Shown piece by piece: positions 24,817-61,013 of a stretch of 64,000 nt of DNA. Both the position numbers and the translations under genes were made by a program. Position 1 is the stretch's first letter, and every line of letters begins with the position of its first letter. A model generated the notes under the pieces. The model saw only the letters and a program-made list of their open reading frames with translations, did no database searches and was not told where the DNA came from. The DNA lies in NCBI RefSeq assembly GCF_001677475.2, contig NZ_CP015229.1; one strand, 5' to 3'. Source of the DNA: Escherichia coli (GTDB lineage Bacteria; Pseudomonadota; Gammaproteobacteria; Enterobacterales; Enterobacteriaceae).

Positions 24817-25516
24817 GGGAGTTCTACCGCAGGGGCGGGGAACTCCAAGTGATATCCATCATCGCATCCAGTGCGCCCGGTTTATCCCCGCTGGCGCGGG
24901 GAACACCAAATCCAGCCAGCCGCCGACGGTAATCACCCCGGTTTATCCCCGCTGGCGCGGGGAACACTATGGGGTAGGGCGCTATCAGACATTTACGCAC
25001 GGTTTATCCCCGCTGGCGCGGGGAACACTGCAAGTAACGTTAAGGGAACCGTGGAGACAGCGGTTTATCCCCGCTGGCGCGGGGAACACTTAGAAAACGC
25101 AATGAGCCGCGCGCCCATACCCGGTTTATCCCCGCTGGCGCGGGGAACACGGCACGCTGGACTGAACAAATCCCTGGGCCATCGGTTTATCCCCGCTGGC
25201 GCGGGGAACACACTTACAACCACAATAATAAAAAAAGCCTCGTCGGTTTATCCCCGCTGGCGCGGGGAACACGCCGCTATCTCACCACCAGAACTGTTAC
25301 CCGTCGGTTTATCCCCGCTGGCGCGGGGAACACTTGCAGTGGATAGTCATGTAGCCCGCGCGGGCCGGTTTATCCCCGCTGGCGCGGGGAACACTTTAAA
25401 TACTGCCGTTCCAGCTTGTTGATCGCCGGTTTATCCCCGCTGGCGCGGGGAACACCGTAACTGCCTGTACACGCTGTAATGGCTCACCGGTTTATCCCCG
25501 CTGGCGCGGGGAACAC
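24817..25516 (-). CRISPR. CRISPR array 1 (type I-E): 11 identical 29-nt repeats plus 1 degenerate terminal repeat, 11 spacers of 32 nt
   Basis: Repeat CGGTTTATCCCCGCTGGCGCGGGGAACAC (plus strand) recurs at 24878 + 61k for k=0..10. Degenerate distal repeat at 24817-24845 (GGGAGTTCTACCGCAGGGGCGGGGAACTC). Leader is on the cas2 side, so transcription is on the minus strand. Confidence 0.97.
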
Positions 25517-31806: not shown

Positions 31807-34506
31807 TCAATCAACCTTACCAATCAATCCCTCCGTAGCCGAATACCCGCAACTTTCGTCATCGGTAACTAAAATCACATTTGCCATCTCCGGATCTTGC
31901 CGCTGTTCAACGCACCACTGCCTGAACGCATCCCCTTCCAGTAAAGAAAACTCATCGCGATGTTTTTTCCACCAGCTTCGACGCACTCTGACAACGCTCA
32001 TTTCCCATGCGTGAGCACCGGTGGCATAAGGCTTCACCACACCGTCAATACAGGTAGCCAGCCACAGGGAAACAGATTCCTCAGCCAGACGTGTCGACAG
32101 CTTTTCCGGAAGGTAATCGTTGATATTGGCGGCATAGCCAGGCTTGAAGTTCAGGACAAACTTTTTAGCCATTGCACGATCGCAGTAATATTTGCCCACT
32201 TGCTCCTGCTCGCTGCGGGCAAATCCTTCCGGCATTACCACGTCCTCACCGTAGACTGATTCAATAAGAAGGCGGGCTGCGTGTGGCATTTGAATAGCGC
32301 CTTGCTCACGCAGTACACGCTGCGTCAGCCAGATTCGTCCATGATCGGGATAGACATATGCACTGTTACGCATGGCACTGCCGAACCATTCGTCACCAGG
32401 AGCGTCGTCCCAGACGGGGGCCAGAATCAGCAATTCAGGAGGGGAACGCTCGTCTTTTCCGTCACGCTTTAACTGACCATTAATATCGCGGATATGCCGC
32501 TGTAATCGCCCCGCCCGTTGGATCAGCAAATCAACAGAGGCCAGGTCGGAGATCATTTCGTCCAGGTCAATATCCACACTTTGTTCAATTACTTGCGTAC
32601 AAACAATGACTTGCGATAATCTCTGTAAACTACAACTTTTACCAAAGCGTGCCAACGTTTCCGTTTCAATTCGCTGGCGATCGCTAAAAGCAAAGCGGCT
32701 ATGAAAAAGAGAAAGGCTGGAAGCAGGAATGACGCCGCGGGCAAGTAACTGACGATAAACTTTAATAGCATCATCGACAGAATTCCGGATCCAGGCGATG
32801 CATTTCCCCTGACTTACCGCCGATTCGATACGCGCAATACACTCTTGTTCGCTATGAAGCCAACCCACGCTCACGCTACGCTCAACGTCTTTGCGCGTCG
32901 CTACCCGGTGTGAATGCACATCGGATTTCGTAACGTGCGTCAGCCAGGGGTAATCATCCTTTTCCAGGAACGGAGCTTCTTGCTGGCCCTCTGTACCACG
33001 CGCAAAGGCAGCAACGAGTTTGTCGCGCTGCTGTTGAGATAACGTGGCAGAAAGCAAAATGACGCTGTTTCCGCCACGCGCCTGCAGCTCGATCAGCCCT
33101 TCAAGAATGCATGACATGTAAGCGTCACAGGCATGGATCTCATCAGCCAGCAGGATTTTGTTACTCAGTCCCAGAAGCCGCAGATTATTATGTTTGAACG
33201 GCATCACAGCCATCATCGCCTGATCCAGCGTGCCGACGCCAATTTCAGCCAGCAACGCCTTCTTGTTACTGTCAGCAAACCAGGCCGCACATCCCTGGCT
33301 GAAAGCTTGTTCATCCGGTTCTTCTGACCCGACTAAATCACCGGACCAGAGTGATTCATTAAAGCGGTCCATTAATGTGCGGGCACTGTGTGCCAGCACC
33401 AGGCTGGGGCGGGATTGTGGCGAATAGAAAGCAAGCCAGGTTTTGACCAGCCGATCGTACATGGCATTGGCCGTTGCCATTGTTGGCAGGCCAAAAAACA
33501 AACCCTGCGCTTTCCCCGCAGCCATCAACCTGTGCGCCAGGATAAGCGCCGCTTCTGTTTTACCTGCGCCGGTTACATCCTCCAGAATAAATAACTGTGG
33601 TCCCGGCTGGCTGATATCCAGATCCAGCACCTTTTGCTGTAGCGGTGTCGGATTCTCAATAAAAGGAAACAGCGTATTAATTCCGGTGAAAGGCGCGGTT
33701 TCTGCTTTTGGAGGAAAGACGGTTAAGGCGTTTTGAGCCTGAACTAAAGTTTTCTGCCAGTAATCTTCAATATCCATTGTCTGTGCGACGCGTGGAAAAA
33801 ATCGCGTTGACGATCCCGTCCAGTCTGCAAGTACGACGGTTGCAGAGATATACCAGGAAAGTTGTTTTATAAGTTCAACGCCCTCGTCATCATCCCAGAA
33901 TGTGGGGATCTCTATGAGCGGAAACAGTGCCTTGATTGCAAGGAGAAAATCTCGTGCGGCAGCTTTGTCTTCAGGCAGAAAGTTGTCCAGTTCATCCATA
34001 CGGTCAGGAGGCCGACCATGATGCCCGGTAGTTATGGGCATCCACATATCTATTACCCGTTTGAGCTTGCGCGGAGAGAGTGAAGATGCAGGAAGCAATT
34101 CTTCGCATTCACTTAAATAATGGTGCCACAACCAGTAACCCAGCGTTGAATGAGAGATTTTTTCGTAATTTTTTCTAGAGCTTTCCGGAACCTTGAGTTG
34201 CGGGTGCAGGTAAAGTTGCTGAAAAGAGCGGGCAAATTTTCCAGTATCGTGCCAGCACAATAGCCAGGCGAAAAATTGTGCTGCCTGCTCCGTATCAGCG
34301 AAACCTAGTTGACGAAAATAGTCAGCCAGCCCGAAGCAATTGCTTTTAACCATTAAATAGCCCATCGCGGCTACATCCAGCGAATGCCAGCAAAGAAGGT
34401 GATAGTCGTCGCCCCCGTCTTTCTCGCCGCGTCGGGTTTTTCCCCAGAAATCAAAAAAAGTCACAATATTTTTATCCTTCAGTAAACTTAAAGGATATTT
34501 ACGCAT
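31807..34506 (-). CDS. cas3: Cas3 HD-nuclease/helicase (type I-E)
   Basis: 899 aa; N-terminal HD domain (…LLCWHSLDVAA…), helicase motif I (TGAGKTEAA) and motif II (LLADEIHACD). Confidence 0.93.
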   Translation of the reverse strand: MRKYPLSLLKDKNIVTFFDFWGKTRRGEKDGGDDYHLLCWHSLDVAAMGYLMVKSNCFGLADYFRQLGFADTEQAAQFFAWLLCWHDTGKFARSFQQLYLHPQLKVPESSRKNYEKISHSTLGYWLWHHYLSECEELLPASSLSPRKLKRVIDMWMPITTGHHGRPPDRMDELDNFLPEDKAAARDFLLAIKALFPLIEIPTFWDDDEGVELIKQLSWYISATVVLADWTGSSTRFFPRVAQTMDIEDYWQKTLVQAQNALTVFPPKAETAPFTGINTLFPFIENPTPLQQKVLDLDISQPGPQLFILEDVTGAGKTEAALILAHRLMAAGKAQGLFFGLPTMATANAMYDRLVKTWLAFYSPQSRPSLVLAHSARTLMDRFNESLWSGDLVGSEEPDEQAFSQGCAAWFADSNKKALLAEIGVGTLDQAMMAVMPFKHNNLRLLGLSNKILLADEIHACDAYMSCILEGLIELQARGGNSVILLSATLSQQQRDKLVAAFARGTEGQQEAPFLEKDDYPWLTHVTKSDVHSHRVATRKDVERSVSVGWLHSEQECIARIESAVSQGKCIAWIRNSVDDAIKVYRQLLARGVIPASSLSLFHSRFAFSDRQRIETETLARFGKSCSLQRLSQVIVCTQVIEQSVDIDLDEMISDLASVDLLIQRAGRLQRHIRDINGQLKRDGKDERSPPELLILAPVWDDAPGDEWFGSAMRNSAYVYPDHGRIWLTQRVLREQGAIQMPHAARLLIESVYGEDVVMPEGFARSEQEQVGKYYCDRAMAKKFVLNFKPGYAANINDYLPEKLSTRLAEESVSLWLATCIDGVVKPYATGAHAWEMSVVRVRRSWWKKHRDEFSLLEGDAFRQWCVEQRQDPEMANVILVTDDESCGYSATEGLIGKVD

Positions 34507-34827: not shown

Positions 34828-35059
34828 GCCACAAGGGCATATTTTGTCAGCATGTCTTGCCTCCCTGCAAAGAAGAGACTAACATTCGAATTGTTTGGGT
34901 TCGAACGTAAGCCTCAGGTTGATAGAAATATCGCCTGGGGCTTTTGTCCATCTGGAACCTCGCGAATGCTTAACGCCAGACAGCCTCAAGCACCCGACGC
35001 CATTCTATACCTGATAATTCTTCCAGCGGCGTTCACGTTTAAAATCAGGAATGCTGCTC

Positions 35060-35117: not shown

Positions 35118-35852
35118 CTACCCTTCGTGTAACCCACATTCCCTTTTTAAGCCAAAGAAACGAGTTTCTTCTTCCGCCATGCCGGGTTCCCATTTACGGG
35201 TTGTATGGGTATCGCCCACCGATAAATATCCTTCGTCCCATAATGGGTGATATTTCAGGCCATGTTTTTGCAGATACTGATATATCGTTCGGTTATCCCA
35301 GTCGATAATCGGCAGCACTTTAAATACGCCACGCTGAATTGCCAGCACCGGTAAATTGGCGCGACTGCCGGATTGTTCGCGGCGCAGGCCAGCAAACCAC
35401 GTTTGCGCATTCAGTTCTTTCAGCGCCCGGTTCATCGGTTCGACTTTGTTGATGTCATTGTACTTTTCAATGCCTTCAACGCCCTGCTCCCATAGTTTTC
35501 CGTAACGTGCTTCCTGCCAGGCGGCGCTTTCGGTAGCGCGGTACACTTTCAGGTTGAGCTTGAGTTTGTCCGTTAACTCGTCAATAAAGCGGTAGGTTTC
35601 CGGGAACAAGTAACCCGTATCGGTGAGGATCACTGGAATATCCGGGCGAATCTGATTCACCAGATGCAGGCTCACCGCCGCCTGAATGCCGAAACTGGAA
35701 GAAAGTACATATTCACCGGGCAGATTATCCAGCGCCCAGGCAACGCGGCCTTCAGCGTCCAGTTTTTCCAGTTCGGCGTTAGTTTCTGCCAGCGCCAGAA
35801 TGCGATCTACCTTCGGCAGTTCGTTCAGGGCGTTTAGATCGAGTTTGGACAT
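35118..35852 (-). CDS. cysH: Phosphoadenosine phosphosulfate (PAPS) reductase
   Basis: Start at ATG 35852 ([14 protein letters not shown]…), 244 aa; C-terminal ECGLH motif. ORF track extends 51 codons upstream. Confidence 0.95.
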
Positions 35853-35873
35853 AGATTCCTCACTGTTTGCCTT

Positions 35874-35909
35874 GCCTGATGCGACGCTCACGCGTCTTAT
35901 CAGGCCTAC
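35874..35909. repeat. REP element between cysI and cysH
   Basis: GCCTGATGCGACGCTCACGCGTCTTATCAGGCCTAC is a canonical E. coli REP palindrome. Confidence 0.7.
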
Positions 35910-35925
35910 AAGACCGGGCTGATGG

Positions 35926-37638
35926 TTAATCCCACAAATCGCGCGCCGGATCGAGCACCGGGCGAATGATGCCCGCACGCACCGTAAAGTCGCCGAAGCC
36001 TTCACCCGCTTCGCGCTCTTTCGCCCAGCGCCCTATCAGTTCATCAAGCGACGCCAGGATTTCCGGTTCGGTGATGTTTTCTTTATACATCCGTGGGATA
36101 CGTGTCCCAATGCGGTTGCCGCCAAGATGCAGGTTGTAGCGACCCGGCGCTTTACCCACCAGGCCCACTTCCGCCAGCATCGCGCGACCACAACCGTTCG
36201 GGCAGCCTGTTACACGCATCACGATATGCTCATCGCTGACACCATGTTTCGCCATTAAATTATCGATGTTGTCGATAAAAGACGGCAGGAAACGCTCCGC
36301 TTCCGCCATCGCCAGCGGGCAAGTCGGGAATGACACGCAGGCCATTGAGTTTTCACGCTGCGGCGTGACGGCATTCATTAACCCGCTCTCTTTAGCGATC
36401 TTCTCGATCTTTGCTTTCTCACTTTCCGGCACACCGGCGATGATCAGATTCTGGTTCGCCGTAATGCGGAAATCACCTTTGTGGATCTTCGCGATCTCCA
36501 GCAGGCCGGTTTTCAGCGGACGCCCAGGATAATCAAGGATGCGACCATTTTCGATAAACAGCGTCAGGTGCCAGTTATCATCAATGCCTTTAACCCAGCC
36601 AATACGATCGCCACGTCCGGTAAATTCATACGGGCGGATAGGTTCGAACTTGACCCCCGCACGACGTTCCACTTCCGCTTTAAACGTCTCAATACCCACG
36701 CGCTCCAGCGTGTATTTGGTTTTGGCATTTTTACGATCGGTTCGATTACCCCAGTCACGCTGAGTCGTCACGACGGCTTCCGCCACCGCCAGCGTATGCT
36801 CCAGCGGCAGATAGCCAAACTCGCTCGCGGTGCGGGCGTAGGTTTTTTTGTTACCGTGTTCGATGGAAAGCCCACCGCCCACCAGCAGGTTAAAGCCCAC
36901 CAGCTTGCCGTTTTCGGCGATCGCCACGAAGTTCATGTCGTTGGCGTGCAGATCGATATCGTTCTGCGGCGGGATCACTACCGTGGTTTTGAATTTACGC
37001 GGCAAATAAGTCTGACCGAGGATCGGTTCTTCATCGGTGGTGGCGACTTTTTCCTGATCGAGCCAGATCTCCGCATACGCGCGGGTACGCGGCAGCAGAT
37101 GTTCAGATATTTTCTTCGCCCATTCATAAGCTTCCGCGTGCAGCTGCGACTCGTAAGGGTTCGAGGTGCAGAGTACGTTACGGTTCATGTCGTTAGCAGT
37201 CGCCAGCGCATCAAGACCGACCGAGTGCAGCATCTGGTGCACCGGTTTGACGTTCTTTTTCAGAATGCCGTGGAACTGAAACGTCTGGCGGTTGGTCAGG
37301 CGAATGCTGCCATAGATGGTGTTTTCACCGGCAAATTTGTCTATCGCCTGCCACTGTTTGGTGGTGATCACGCCACCCGGCAGACGGCAGCGCAACAGCA
37401 TCGCGTGGCGCGGCGCCAGCTTCTGTTCAGCACGTTCGGCGCGGATGTCGCGGTCATCCTGCTGATACATGCCGTGGAAGCGGATCAGCAGGAAGTTGTC
37501 GCCCTTAAAGCCGCCGGTCAGACCGTCGTTTAAATCTTCCGCAATGGTGCCGCGCAGGTAGTTGCTTTCAAGCTTCATGCGCTCGGCGTCTGTCAGTTTT
37601 CCTTCGACCACTAAAGGCCCTGGATGTTTTTCGCTCAT
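35926..37638 (-). CDS. cysI: Sulfite reductase hemoprotein beta subunit
   Basis: 570 aa; siroheme/4Fe-4S Cys motif (…TGCPNGC…). Confidence 0.96.
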
Positions 37639-50964: not shown

Positions 50965-51786
50965 ATGGTTATCCCCGCTAACGCGGGGAACTCACTGAAA
51001 ACACCGGCGAGATCGTATTTTTTGCCGGTTTATCCCCGCTCGCGCGGGGAACTCTACCGGAAGGCAGGCACATTAGATCAGGTGATCGGTTTATCCCCGC
51101 TCGCGCGGGGAACTCCAGTGAGCGGAAGAAGAATGACTAACAGAGAGCGGTTTATCCCCGCTCGCGCGGGGAACTCCCCAGCCACAACAGCCACGCGTCG
51201 CGCTGTTCCGGTTTATCCCCGCTCGCGCGGGGAACTCGGAAACCGCCCCGGCGGTGGTTGGCTGTTTGCCGGTTTATCCCCGCTCGCGCGGGGAACTCTT
51301 TGCGCCGGAAATAGGAATCGTATTCGGTCTCGGTTTATCCCCGCTCGCGCGGGGAACTCTTATGCATCTCATCAAGCTTGTCGCCAAACGACGGTTTATC
51401 CCCGCTCGCGCGGGGAACTCTTAAATCGCGCTGGAAAAAAATGGTTTTTGCGCGGTTTATCCCCGCTCGCGCGGGGAACTCACACCCCGTTGCAATAAAT
51501 GGTCTGGGGGCTGCGGTTTATCCCCGCTCGCGCGGGGAACTCCAAACGCTTCTTCGTAGGCAGCACTGTAGGCCCGGTTTATCCCCGCTCGCGCGGGGAA
51601 CTCGGTGAAAAGATGAGTGCATACTGGTTTGTTTTCGGTTTATCCCCGCTCGCGCGGGGAACTCTCTTTTCCCGCTAATCACGACCAGATCCTGTCCGGT
51701 TTATCCCCGCTCGCGCGGGGAACTCGTAAAACCTCCTCGCGCCCACAATCGCAGCGGCGGTTTATCCCCGCTCGCGCGGGGAACTC
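50965..51786 (-). CRISPR. CRISPR array 2 (type I-E): 13 identical 29-nt repeats plus 1 degenerate terminal repeat, 13 spacers of 32 nt
   Basis: Repeat CGGTTTATCCCCGCTCGCGCGGGGAACTC recurs at 51026 + 61k for k=0..12. Degenerate distal repeat (GGTTATCCCCGCTAACGCGGGGAACTC) at 50966-50993. Leader on the queE side. Confidence 0.97.
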
Positions 51787-57255: not shown

Positions 57256-58047
57256 TTAGAGATCAATTTCCTGCCGTTTTACCTGTTGCCAGACTTCTTC
57301 CATTGTTTCGAGGTCAACACCTGTCATTTCCAGTCCACGCGCGGCAACAATACGCTCCACTTCGCGAAAACGACGCTCGAATTTTTCGTTCGCTTTTTGC
57401 AATGCGATTTCCGCTTTTGTCCCTAAATGACGAGCCAGATTGACCGTGGCAAACAGCAGGTCGCCCATTTCCTCCTCCAGTTTAGCCTGGTCGATAACAG
57501 CCTGCCGTGCCTCGTACATCACCTCGTCGATCTCTTCGTAGACTTTATCGACTACCGGACCAAGCGTCGTCCAGTCAAAACCAACGTTGGCGCAACGTTT
57601 CTGGATTTTTTGCGCACGCATTAAAGCCGGTAAACTACGAGGAATATCGTCCAGCGCCGAATGCTGCGCTTTCTGCGCGCGCTCTTCGGTTTTGATTTGC
57701 TCCCAACGGGCAAGCACTTCACTACTGTTTTCGGCAGAACTGTAAGCAAAAACATGCGGATGGCGACGTTCTAACTTATCGCTGATCGCGGCGCAAATAT
57801 CATTAAAGTCAAAGCGCCCTTCTTCCTGGGCCATTTGTGCGTAAAACACCACCTGGAACAGCAGATCGCCCAGTTCACCGCGAAGATCGTCAAAATCTTC
57901 ACGGGCGATGGCGTCCAGCACCTCGTAGGTTTCTTCAAGGGTGTAAGGCGCAATGGTGGCAAATGTCTGCTCTTTATCCCACGGGCAGCCGTTTTCCGGA
58001 TCGCGCAGGCGCTGCATAATAGTGAGCAAACGGTCGATTTGATTCAT
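57256..58047 (-). CDS. mazG: Nucleoside triphosphate pyrophosphohydrolase MazG
   Basis: 263 aa; tandem MazG domains with EExxE motifs. Confidence 0.95.
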   Translation of the reverse strand: MNQIDRLLTIMQRLRDPENGCPWDKEQTFATIAPYTLEETYEVLDAIAREDFDDLRGELGDLLFQVVFYAQMAQEEGRFDFNDICAAISDKLERRHPHVFAYSSAENSSEVLARWEQIKTEERAQKAQHSALDDIPRSLPALMRAQKIQKRCANVGFDWTTLGPVVDKVYEEIDEVMYEARQAVIDQAKLEEEMGDLLFATVNLARHLGTKAEIALQKANEKFERRFREVERIVAARGLEMTGVDLETMEEVWQQVKRQEIDL

Positions 58048-58117
58048 TGAATTGTCCTGAAAATTGCGGGTCTGTCAGGTGGAAACCTGTGACCAGAATA
58101 GAAGTGAGTAAGTAACA

Positions 58118-58453
58118 CTACCCAATCAGCACGTTAATTTTGGCTTTAATGAGCTGTAATTCCTCTGGGGCAACCGTTCCTTTTTTCGTTGCTCCTCTTG
58201 CCCGCCAGGCGATACTTTTTACCTGATCAGCTAACGCTACGCCATCACGTTTCTGACCGGATAAAACAACTTCGAACGGATATCCTTTTGATTGCGTTGT
58301 ACAAGGAACACACAAACACATACCTGTTTTGTTGTTGTACATGAACGGACTCAGGACAACAGCCGGACGATGTCCGGCTTGCTCGCTACCTTTTGTCGGG
58401 TCAAAATCAACCCAAATCAGATCGCCCGTATCGGGTACGTATCGGCTTACCAT
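58118..58453 (-). CDS. mazF: mRNA interferase toxin MazF
   Basis: 111 aa; [35 protein letters not shown]… (PemK/MazF fold). Confidence 0.95.
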   Translation of the reverse strand: MVSRYVPDTGDLIWVDFDPTKGSEQAGHRPAVVLSPFMYNNKTGMCLCVPCTTQSKGYPFEVVLSGQKRDGVALADQVKSIAWRARGATKKGTVAPEELQLIKAKINVLIG

Positions 58454-58701
58454 TACCAGACTTCCTTATCTTTCGGCTCCCCCCAGTCGATATTCTCGTG
58501 GAGGTTTTCCGGCGTGATGTCGTTGACCAGTTCAGCAAGCGTAAATACGGGCTCTTTACGCACTGGCTCAATAATTAATTTGCCATCCACCAGGTCAATC
58601 TTCACTTCATCATCAATATTCAGATTGAGCGCCTGCATTAACGTAGCCGGGATCCGCACTGCAGGAGAATTTCCCCAACGCTTTACGCTACTGTGGATCA
58701 T
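58453..58701 (-). CDS. mazE: Antitoxin MazE
   Basis: 82 aa; AbrB-type swapped-hairpin N-terminus ([19 protein letters not shown]…); 1-nt overlap with mazF. Confidence 0.95.
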
Positions 58702-58724
58702 AACCCTTTCCTCAAACCGCTATC

Positions 58725-58775
58725 ATATGTAGATACAGTATATATCAATCTACATTGTAGATACGAGCTAATTTC
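58725..58775 (-). promoter_or_regulatory. mazEF promoter/operator region with alternating palindrome
   Basis: TGTAGATAC direct repeats and GTAGAT/ATCTAC inverted repeats (ATGTAGATACAGTATATATCAATCTACATTGTAGATAC) 25-75 nt upstream of mazE; matches the recalled MazE-MazF autoregulatory site. Confidence 0.45.
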
Positions 58776-58778
58776 GGT

Positions 58779-61013
58779 CTAACTCCCGTGCAACCGACGC
58801 GCGTCGATAACATCCGGCACCTGGTTGAGTTTACCCAGCACGCGGCCCAGCACTTGCAGGTTGTAAATCTCAATGGTCATGTCGATGGTCGCCAGTTGCT
58901 GTTTGGTGTCGCTACGGCTGGCAACGCCAAGTACGTTCACCTTCTCGTTGGCGAGAATGGTCGTGATATCACGTAACAACCCACTACGATCATTAGCCAC
59001 CACGCGGACCACCAGCGAATACCCGGCGGAGTAGCTCTCGCCCCATACCGCATCAACAATGCGTTCCGGCGCATGGGAGCGCAGTTCCGCCAGTTGTTCG
59101 CAATCGGCGCGGTGTACTGAAATACCGCGTCCCTGGGTAATGAAGCCGACAATCTCATCTCCAGGAATCGGCTGGCAGCAGCGCGCGATGTGGTGCATCA
59201 GGTTACCGACACCTTCAACCACCACACGACCGTTATCTTTACTGCGGTTTTGCGGTGTGTAGCTTTTTTGCTGAAGCTGTTTCAGCGCGGCGGCGTCCTG
59301 CTCTTCGGCACTCGGCTTATTAAATTGCGATTGCAGGAAGTTCACCATCTGATTGAGACGGATATCCCCGCCACCAATCGCCGCCAGCAACTCGTCGACA
59401 TCATTGAAGTTGTAACGCGGCAGCAGATGTTTTTCTGCTTCTTTCAGGCTGATCCCCAGATGTTCCAGCTCGTCGTCAAGGATTTGCCGCCCAGCCAGAA
59501 TGTTTTTGTCACGGTCCTGTTTACGGAACCAGGCGTGAATTTTCGAACGCCCACGGCTGGTTGTGACGTAACCGAGGTTTGGGTTTAACCAGTCACGGCT
59601 GGGGTTCGGCTGTTTCTGGGTGATAATTTCAATCTGGTCGCCCATCTGCAGCTGGTAGGTGAACGGCACAATGCGCCCGCCAATTTTTGCCCCAATGCAG
59701 CGGTGTCCGACATCACTGTGGATGTGGTAAGCGAAGTCCAGCGGCGTTGATCCCGCAGGCAAATCAACGACGTCACCTTTCGGCGTAAAGACGTACACCC
59801 GGTCGTCAAAGACCTGGCTGCGTACTTCGTCGAGCATTTCGCCGGAATCAGCCATCTCTTCCTGCCACGCAATCAGTTTACGCAGCCAGGCAATTCGGTC
59901 TTCATGTCCCGAACGTGCGCCGCCAGCTGCCGCGCCTTCTTTATATTTCCAGTGCGCAGCAACACCCAACTCTGCATCTTCATGCATCTGTTTGGTGCGG
60001 ATTTGGATCTCTACGGTTTTGCCACCCGGCCCCAGAACCACGGTATGAATAGACTGATAACCGTTTGGTTTCGGGTTAGCGACGTAATCGTCAAACTCAT
60101 CCGGCAGGTGGCGATAGTGAGTGTGCACTATCCCCAGTGCGGCATAACAATCCTGTAAACGCTCGGCGACAATACGTACCGCACGCACATCAAACAGCTC
60201 ATCGAAGGCGAGGTTCTTTTTCTGCATTTTGCGCCAGATGCTGTAGATGTGTTTCGGTCGACCATACACTTCAGCTTTAACGCCTTCAGCTTTCATCTCA
60301 GCGCGCAGATGGCCGACAAACTCTTCGATATAGTGTTCGCGGTCGAGACGGCGTTCATGCAACAGTTTTGCGATGCGTTTGTATTCGGTCGGGTGGAGAT
60401 AACGGAAGCAGTAATCTTCCAGCTCCCATTTCAGTTGCCCAATCCCAAGACGGTTTGCCAACGGCGCGTAGATATTGGTGCACTCTTTTGCCGCCAGTAC
60501 GCGTTCATCTTCCGGCGCATCTTTTACTTCACGCAGATGAGCAATACGCTCCGCCAGTTTGATGACCACGCAGCGAAAATCATCGACCATCGCCAATAAC
60601 ATCCGGCGAACGTTATCGACCTGTTCGGAGGAAACAGAATCAGTGTGCGTCGCTTTCAGCTGGCGGATCGCCGCCATATCACGCACGCCGTGAATAAGGT
60701 TAACGACAGACTTACCGACGCTCTCACGCAGCACATCTTCGCTGACTACGTTGGCATCGGCCAGAGGGAACAGCAGCGCCGCCCGCAGCGTGTCAATGTC
60801 CATACTTAATGTCGAGAGGATCTCCACCATCTCAACACCACGCCACAATAACAGACTGGCATCCGGATGCCCCTGCGTCTGTTGCAGACAATACGCCCAG
60901 GTTTCGGCTAAGCACTCACACGACTTCTGGCTGGTAATACCCAGACTTGCGATCCATTTTTCCGGATCAAATTCACCAGCCTTATTGATATGTGCACTTC
61001 TTACCGCAACCAT
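58779..61013 (-). CDS. relA: GTP pyrophosphokinase, (p)ppGpp synthetase I
   Basis: 744 aa; RelA/SpoT synthetase domain, TGS and ACT domains. Confidence 0.98.
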   Translation of the reverse strand: MVAVRSAHINKAGEFDPEKWIASLGITSQKSCECLAETWAYCLQQTQGHPDASLLLWRGVEMVEILSTLSMDIDTLRAALLFPLADANVVSEDVLRESVGKSVVNLIHGVRDMAAIRQLKATHTDSVSSEQVDNVRRMLLAMVDDFRCVVIKLAERIAHLREVKDAPEDERVLAAKECTNIYAPLANRLGIGQLKWELEDYCFRYLHPTEYKRIAKLLHERRLDREHYIEEFVGHLRAEMKAEGVKAEVYGRPKHIYSIWRKMQKKNLAFDELFDVRAVRIVAERLQDCYAALGIVHTHYRHLPDEFDDYVANPKPNGYQSIHTVVLGPGGKTVEIQIRTKQMHEDAELGVAAHWKYKEGAAAGGARSGHEDRIAWLRKLIAWQEEMADSGEMLDEVRSQVFDDRVYVFTPKGDVVDLPAGSTPLDFAYHIHSDVGHRCIGAKIGGRIVPFTYQLQMGDQIEIITQKQPNPSRDWLNPNLGYVTTSRGRSKIHAWFRKQDRDKNILAGRQILDDELEHLGISLKEAEKHLLPRYNFNDVDELLAAIGGGDIRLNQMVNFLQSQFNKPSAEEQDAAALKQLQQKSYTPQNRSKDNGRVVVEGVGNLMHHIARCCQPIPGDEIVGFITQGRGISVHRADCEQLAELRSHAPERIVDAVWGESYSAGYSLVVRVVANDRSGLLRDITTILANEKVNVLGVASRSDTKQQLATIDMTIEIYNLQVLGRVLGKLNQVPDVIDARRLHGS

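Follow-up and report, generated by a model that had tools for sequence, protein, structure and literature searches.

The mazEF toxin-antitoxin module at the relA-mazG site of an Escherichia coli chromosome, with a rare MazF allele

The chromosomal mazEF module of Escherichia coli K-12 (chpAI/chpAK; b2783/b2782), represented by PDB entries 1UB4, 1MVF, 3NFC and 5CK9/5CR2, consists of the genes for the antitoxin MazE and the toxin MazF. Catalytic roles have been assigned to R29 and T52 of MazF (PMC10864209), and the protein is inactivated by the E24A mutation, the role of this residue being described in PMC10864209 and PMC5888573. The mRNA of the module is itself cleaved by MazF at ACA, with nine ACA sites in mazF and two in mazE of K-12 (PMC5888573). 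The operator sites of MazE and the binding of MazE to the 'cab' oligonucleotide have been described (PMC4333400). Autorepression by the antitoxin or the toxin-antitoxin complex and the lability of MazE to ClpAP/Lon are known for K-12 (PMC4333400, PMC1626106), whose MazE and operator are identical to those reported below. The antisense RNA aMEF stimulates the synthesis of both MazE and MazF and is required for the abundant monocistronic mazE transcript, and stalling or termination of sense transcription has been proposed for the aMEF promoter region (PMC8749433).

Three further groups of systems are related to this module. Kid/Kis (parD) of plasmid R1 and PemK/PemI of R100 (PDB 1M1F) share with the locus described here the PemK/MazF fold family and the order of antitoxin gene followed by toxin gene, but they are only 31% identical to it, are plasmid-borne, and differ in cleavage preference and in the numbering of the catalytic residues. 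The catalytic residues of Kid are R73/D75/H17. The chpBIK module (ChpS/ChpB) of E. coli is a paralogous chromosomal module of MazF type, to which the present proteins give weak NCBIfam matches. Identity with chpBIK is rejected, because the scores are far below the cut-offs (54 versus 129 bits for ChpB and 35 versus 101 bits for ChpS). The third group consists of nine orthologous loci (L008-L016) from Salmonella, Pseudescherichia, Pantoea, Providencia, Kosakonia, Klebsiella aerogenes and metagenomic contigs. These resemble the present locus in MazF (67-84% identity), in the length of MazE (81-82 aa), in having overlapping or abutting genes and, in eight cases out of nine, in a TCTACAnTGTAGA-type palindrome, but they are never located between relA and mazG.

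Identity and layout of the locus

The DNA analyzed is a stretch of 64,000 nt, referred to as the window, from contig NZ_CP015229.1 of the E. coli assembly GCF_001677475.2. According to the list of open reading frames, eno, pyrG, mazG, mazF, mazE, relA and rlmD are located on its minus strand at 54-62.4 kb, and this order from eno to rlmD is that annotated in E. coli K-12 MG1655. The coordinates of the genes and other elements are listed in Table 1. An alignment of 7,001 nt with K-12 is gap-free, with 127 substitutions, no indels and a coordinate offset of 55861. The gene relA is located upstream of mazE with a spacer of 77 nt, and mazG is located downstream of mazF with a gap of 70 nt, so that mazE and mazF occupy the site between relA and mazG in the order relA-mazE-mazF-mazG. 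The antitoxin gene is located 5' of the toxin gene on the same strand, the two genes overlap by 1 nt, and a palindromic operator precedes them, as is the case for type II toxin-antitoxin modules. These results indicate, with a probability of roughly 0.93, that the locus is the intact chromosomal type II mazEF (chpA) module of E. coli at its canonical relA/mazG site.

Table 1. Positions of genes, regulatory elements and allelic differences in the window
Feature	Position	Strand	Description and basis
mazG	57256-58047	-	263 aa, NTP pyrophosphohydrolase; PF03819, NF007113
mazEF-specific cassette	58085-58778	-	approximate, ~0.69 kb; comparison with L003
mazF	58118-58453	-	111 aa, MazF/PemK-type ACA-specific endoribonuclease toxin, allele T9/K68; ORF, PF02452, NF007386
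MazF codon 68 (E68K)	58252	-	compared with K-12
mazF mRNA hairpin	58361-58379	-	8 bp, 3-nt loop; mazF nt 75-93, codons 25-31 (Q25-A31, including catalytic R29); predicted
aMEF antisense RNA (ameF, b4844 in K-12)	58413-58812	+	colinearity with K-12 annotation 2911051-2911450(+)
MazF codon 9 (M9T)	58428	-	compared with K-12
TAATG junction	58451-58455	-	mazE TAA stop and mazF ATG start share A at 58453
mazE	58453-58701	-	82 aa, AbrB/SpoVT-type antitoxin and autorepressor; ORF, PF04014, NF007312
AAGGAAG, Shine-Dalgarno-like for mazF	58461-58467	-	within mazE 3' end; read from sequence, function inferred
GAGGA, Shine-Dalgarno-like for mazE	58709-58713	-	8 nt 5' of mazE ATG; read from sequence, function inferred
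mazEF operator 'cab'	58718-58767	-	three MazE-dimer sites; 50-nt oligonucleotide of PMC4333400 matched with 0 mismatches; holds the alternating palindrome
Alternating palindrome	58727-58762	.	arms 58727-58734, 58748-58755 and 58756-58762; middle arm pairs with either flank
relA	58779-61013	-	744 aa, GTP diphosphokinase; Pfam HD_4, RelA_SpoT, TGS and ACT domains

MazE is identical to the proteins of PDB 1MVF (1MVF_D) and 1UB4 over 82 of 82 residues. It is matched by PF04014 (MazE_antitoxin) with 52.9 bits and by the NCBIfam equivalog NF007312 with 196.2 bits (cut-off 113), and thus belongs to the MazE antitoxins with an AbrB/SpoVT swapped-hairpin N-domain. MazF is identical to the proteins of PDB 3NFC and 5CK9 at 109 of 111 residues (98%), the two differences being M9T and E68K. 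It is matched by PF02452 (PemK_toxin) with 85.2 bits (cut-off 23.1) over residues 9-109 and, above the curated cut-off of 120 and over residues 1-111 of 111, by the equivalog NF007386 'endoribonuclease MazF' with 225.1 bits, and is thus a member of the MazF/PemK family. MazG is likewise matched by its NCBIfam equivalog, NF007113, with 368 bits (cut-off 208).

The residues E24, Q25, R29, T52, L74 and D76 are all retained in MazF. In an alignment of 109 MazF homologues with 58-98% identity, E24 and T52 are each conserved in 108 and R29 in 106, and Q25, L74 and D76 show little or no variation. ACA-specific cleavage of single-stranded RNA, and toxicity of MazF when present alone, are expected for the T9/K68 protein from its 98% identity to the K-12 protein. 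When MazF and MazE were compared with PADLOC-DB v2, no family was matched at E<=0.001, and a defence role for mazEF is not supported by PADLOC.

The locus is the same as that of K-12 in its neighbours, gene lengths, MazE, TAATG overlap, operator and entire palindromic core, and is colinear with it over 7 kb. It differs from the K-12 locus in the two substitutions of MazF, in 14 nucleotide substitutions in mazE and mazF (12 of them synonymous), in three in the flanking spacers, in the loss of the ACA site at nt 277 of mazF, and in one pair of an intragenic hairpin, which is C-G instead of U-A. The original prediction, which had been made from the letters of the window, described an intact MazF and an intact MazE overlapping by 1 nt, preceded by an alternating-palindrome operator and positioned directly downstream of relA and before mazG. 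Every part of this description is upheld: both frames are full length and matched over their full length by equivalogs, base 58453 belongs to the coordinate ranges of both genes, three palindromic arms are found in the spacer together with the exact 'cab' match, and the position agrees with the coordinates, the Pfam domains and the colinearity with K-12. Its end coordinate, 58775, stops 3 nt before the relA stop codon, a difference of no consequence. The comparison with K-12 mazEF that it proposed gives an identical MazE, a MazF identical at 109 of 111 residues and a colinear region, and the inactivating substitutions in MazF catalytic residues that it named as counter-evidence are absent, R29, T52 and E24 all being present. 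As judged from the sequence, the module is complete and very probably functional.

The module is also well known, as had been said: the same locus is present in K-12 and the same haplotype in GenBank. One E. coli assembly, GCA_043014985.2 (L005), is 100% identical in nucleotide sequence over mazG-mazF-mazE-relA (3,758 nt) and shows no difference in the compared stretch, which indicates that the allele has already been deposited and named; L007 has 5 mismatches. A source other than E. coli was suspected, since the identity over mazG-relA is at most 99.0% in any complete RefSeq genome, but was rejected on the basis of the indel-free colinearity with K-12 and of this identical assembly.

Operator, gene junction and transcripts

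The middle arm of the alternating palindrome, 58748-58755, is complementary to 58727-58734 over 8 nt with a 13-nt gap, and its part 58748-54 is complementary to 58756-58762 over 7 nt with a 1-nt gap. This alternating arrangement is non-random, being reproduced in 6 of 20,000 shuffles of the relA-mazE spacer. The surrounding 'cab' operator is identical to that of K-12, with site 'a' at 58735-58748. The palindrome at 58748-58762, TCTACAaTGTAGA, recurs 5' of mazE in eight of the nine orthologous loci, in which a TCTACAnTGTAGA or TACAnTGTA palindrome is present in one or two copies. Because this core box is kept upstream of mazE in cassettes of other genera despite their unrelated contexts, the E. 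coli operator looks like one full conserved box with one extra half-site. It differs in this 'one and a half' arrangement from the orthologous cassettes, which mostly have one or two full palindromes.

The relA-mazE spacer differs from that of K-12 at 58769 and 58778, both upstream of the operator. The change at 58769, from TTTGCTC to TTAGCTC on the sense strand, is located 2 nt upstream of the operator and is also found in L002, L004, L005 and L007; it might touch a promoter or a Fis element. The change at 58778 is also found in L005 and L007. A scan with the sigma-70 consensus gives 4 promoter-like sites versus 3.8 expected by chance, and the P2/P3 hexamers are therefore not assigned. No convincing intrinsic terminator is found within or after mazEF on the minus strand.

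The sense sequence of the mazE/mazF junction is GTCTGGTAATGGTAAGC, which reads GTC TGG TAA TGG TAA GC. An overlap of 1 nt of the TAATG/TGATG type is also seen in the sequences of the orthologues L008, L010 and L011, and, as judged from gene coordinates, in L012, L015 and L016, while the genes do not overlap in L009, L013 and L014.

A recount of the ACA sites in K-12 agrees with the published numbers (PMC5888573). The window contains two in mazE and eight, not nine, in mazF, because the site at nt 277 is removed by a synonymous change. The aMEF RNA, which was absent from the original prediction, covers by colinearity the 5' end of mazF, the whole of mazE, the operator and the relA stop. The 36 nt preceding its mapped start (58377-58412) are identical to those of K-12, the nearest differences being located at 58376 and 58364. 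An open frame of 146 codons is located antisense to mazF and mazE at 58292-58732 (+) and partially overlaps the aMEF region. A scan with Rfam gives no family in the mazEF region, the sole match in the window being sok.

The following steps are those of the literature on the near-identical K-12 module. The genes mazE and mazF would be transcribed from a promoter region within the relA-mazE spacer and translationally coupled through the TAATG overlap. The disordered acidic C-terminus of MazE would wrap around the MazF dimer and thereby block its RNA groove. MazE dimers, helped by MazF, would occupy the three-site operator and repress transcription. In free MazF, R29 and T52 would act at the scissile phosphate and translation would be shut down, the mRNA of the module being among the targets through the ACA sites counted above. 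The aMEF RNA, starting inside mazF, would tune the ratio of the mazE and mazEF transcripts.

A hairpin is predicted in the mazF mRNA, with an energy of -18.6 kcal/mol (z = -3.5) in the window and -17.1 kcal/mol (z = -2.9) in K-12. Its nt 78/nt 90 pair is C-G here versus U-A in K-12, so that it differs on both sides, and both differences are synonymous. By exact 40-mer search, this pair is U-A in 2,998 complete genomes, C-G in 1,317, a U.G wobble (sense strand) in 38 and a C.A mismatch in 2. The genomes share clonal descent and the two nucleotides lie only 12 nt from each other, so that these counts are not independent. Allowing for this non-independence, the pattern would be that expected if the pair had evolved by compensatory changes, with a wobble as the intermediate. 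The amino acids A/G-G-H-R-P-A dictate five of the eight pairs of the hairpin. In the nine orthologues, the three pairs at free wobble positions are complementary in 13 of 27 cases versus about 10 by chance, and therefore give no cross-species support. Conservation of the hairpin across orthologues is rejected on these two grounds. At the ACA self-cleavage site at nt 81-83, two bases out of three are buried in the hairpin, which is located just upstream of the aMEF promoter, near the presumed end of the abundant monocistronic mazE transcript. If the hairpin were a selected cis-element, it could determine the ratio of mazE to mazF transcripts or protect one self-cleavage site of MazF; this is quite unlikely, and the hairpin is an unproven curiosity.

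Position of mazEF between relA and mazG

The original prediction stated that the arrangement links ppGpp synthesis with a toxin-antitoxin system. The physical adjacency is real, but the statement is weak as a functional claim. It implies the classical programmed-cell-death model, according to which the placement is functional: transcription of mazEF is silenced by the ppGpp that RelA produces, MazE is lost by decay, the cell is killed or arrested by MazF, and the response is tempered by MazG. This model is consistent with the presence of the order relA-mazE-mazF-mazG in ~81% of complete E. coli genomes and with reports of co-transcription of mazEF with relA and of its repression by ppGpp (PMC1626106, PMC7167474). 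However, of the 5,426 complete E. coli genomes, 5,425 have relA/mazG and 4,415 have full-length mazEF at this site, so that in ~19% an undisturbed relA-mazG pair lacks mazEF. None of the nine orthologous cassettes is located beside relA or mazG. Their surroundings are unrelated and mostly mobile, with IS elements or transposases, plasmid Rep3 genes, genes of phages, higBA, hok and a resolvase as neighbours, and one of them is located in a cas3-cysH gap. According to a review (PMC7167474), mazEF has not been shown to be functionally linked to its neighbouring cistrons, and the data on ppGpp contradict one another; the review also notes that relA and mazG form an undisturbed pair in UTI89 and that the site is occupied by parDE in Salmonella. 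The literature is divided on co-transcription with relA and/or mazG, which is favoured in PMC7167474, whereas detection of a mazEFG transcript was not reproducible in PMC8749433. A functional placement is therefore unlikely. Because of the mazEF-less genomes and of the location of all nine orthologues elsewhere, the link with relA is physical and probably incidental, and the site of mazEF between relA and mazG most likely represents a historical insertion of a mobile cassette, not functional coupling to ppGpp metabolism.

The extent of this cassette was estimated by comparison with the mazEF-less L003, in which relA and mazG are 95 nt apart (L003 2501-2595). Only the final ~34-41 nt before mazG are common to L003 and the mazEF-positive strains, and the mazEF-specific cassette is therefore placed approximately as given in Table 1. 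The relA-mazG spacer of L003 is an unrelated sequence with the inverted repeat GCTGGATA...TATCCAGC.

The relA gene differs from that of K-12 by 58 nt, without any difference in the amino acid sequence. Divergence from K-12 is locally raised at 57362-57861 (mazG) and at 60112-60611 (relA), with a peak in relA of 20 mismatches in 60362-60611 (up to 20 per 250 nt), all synonymous; rlmD and pyrG, on either side, share >99% identity with K-12 or other strains. This mosaic divergence points to a recombination-type history. MazG differs from the K-12 protein by D102Y and V185I, and exactly this protein is already in public databases.

Elsewhere in the window, a sok antitoxin RNA (Rfam, 113 bits) is located at 34838-34995 (-), between cas3 (31807-34506) and cysH (35118-36005); the ORF list shows no intact frame of hok size nearby. 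The equivalent cas3-cysH gap of Pseudescherichia (L009 2752-4329) holds mazEF and higBA. In view of sok here and of these two modules there, the cas3-cysH gap looks like a second insertion hot spot for toxin-antitoxin systems. Two CRISPR arrays, at 25000-25516 and 51147-51605, have a periodicity of 61 nt and the repeat CGGTTTATCCCCGCTGGCGCGGGGAAC, and are type I-E-like; the former is located ~6 kb downstream of cas3.

The T9/K68 allele of MazF

The M9T and E68K substitutions were missed in the original prediction. Both are located at naturally variable surface positions. Among the 109 homologues, position 9 is occupied by A in 51, S in 25, M in 16, E in 8 and T in 5, and position 68 by E in 40, K in 19, S in 16, N in 7, R in 6 and others, so that K is the second commonest residue at the latter. 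The T9 codon context is found in 496 complete E. coli genomes, including that of the species type strain, and M9T is a common polymorphism. The K68 codon context is found in 0 of 5,426 complete RefSeq E. coli genomes. The same MazF protein is present in GenBank as 'endoribonuclease MazF [Escherichia coli]' (ANO90587.1 and others) in ~50 (draft) contigs.

E68K reverses the charge in the Ser65-Gly71 loop, beside the fairly conserved R69. In an alignment with Kid, for which the Kid sequence was checked to be identical to PDB 1M1F, K68 of MazF is aligned with Arg67, which is likewise basic. In the Kid-like MazF-SEA, Arg-67 is one of the basic residues that line the RNA groove (PMC10864209). The module might thus be structurally intact but contain a MazF that is attenuated or otherwise altered by E68K, possibly together with M9T, in its affinity or specificity for RNA or in its binding to MazE, and that is either weakened or hyperactive. 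The location of the charge reversal in the loop that corresponds to the Arg67 loop of Kid and MazF-SEA and the restriction of K68 to ~50 contigs would fit such a change, as would the existence of natural E. coli alleles that look like loss of function, such as P0005 with R29S. However, position 68 is K or R in 25 of the homologues, T9 is present even in the type strain, the near-invariant catalytic and RNA-contact positions are unchanged, and MazE is unchanged as well, so that no compensating change is seen in the antitoxin. A toxin altered in this way is very unlikely.

Because the two positions are variable and the key residues are kept, the T9/K68 toxin is very probably active, and most likely it is fully active and neutralisable, as suggested by these comparisons. 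E68K is rare, recent and probably neutral; it may alter the binding of RNA or MazE quantitatively. Among other public E. coli records are a MazF allele with the catalytic substitution R29S (P0005) and a MazE-MazF fusion product of 193 aa (P0036); inactivated or fused variants of mazEF therefore exist in nature.

The reading of the locus as a decaying or pseudogenised remnant, or as a chance pair of ORFs, is already refuted, since both frames are full length with full-length equivalog matches, 8 of the 10 nucleotide differences from K-12 in mazF and all 4 in mazE are synonymous, and the operator is intact, and no point has been found in its favour.

The locus is thus already known and already deposited, and is nothing new in kind, its sole peculiarity being a rare and probably harmless variant of the toxin. 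Its importance beyond annotation is small. It is nevertheless worth knowing for work on persistence, phages or stress that this strain has a complete mazEF with an unaltered operator and antitoxin. The comparative data provide independent support for regarding mazEF as a mobile cassette whose location next to relA is no sign of a functional link to ppGpp. For specialists in toxin-antitoxin systems, the lineage with the rare E68K allele allows the effect of an altered charge in an RNA-groove loop to be tested in nature.
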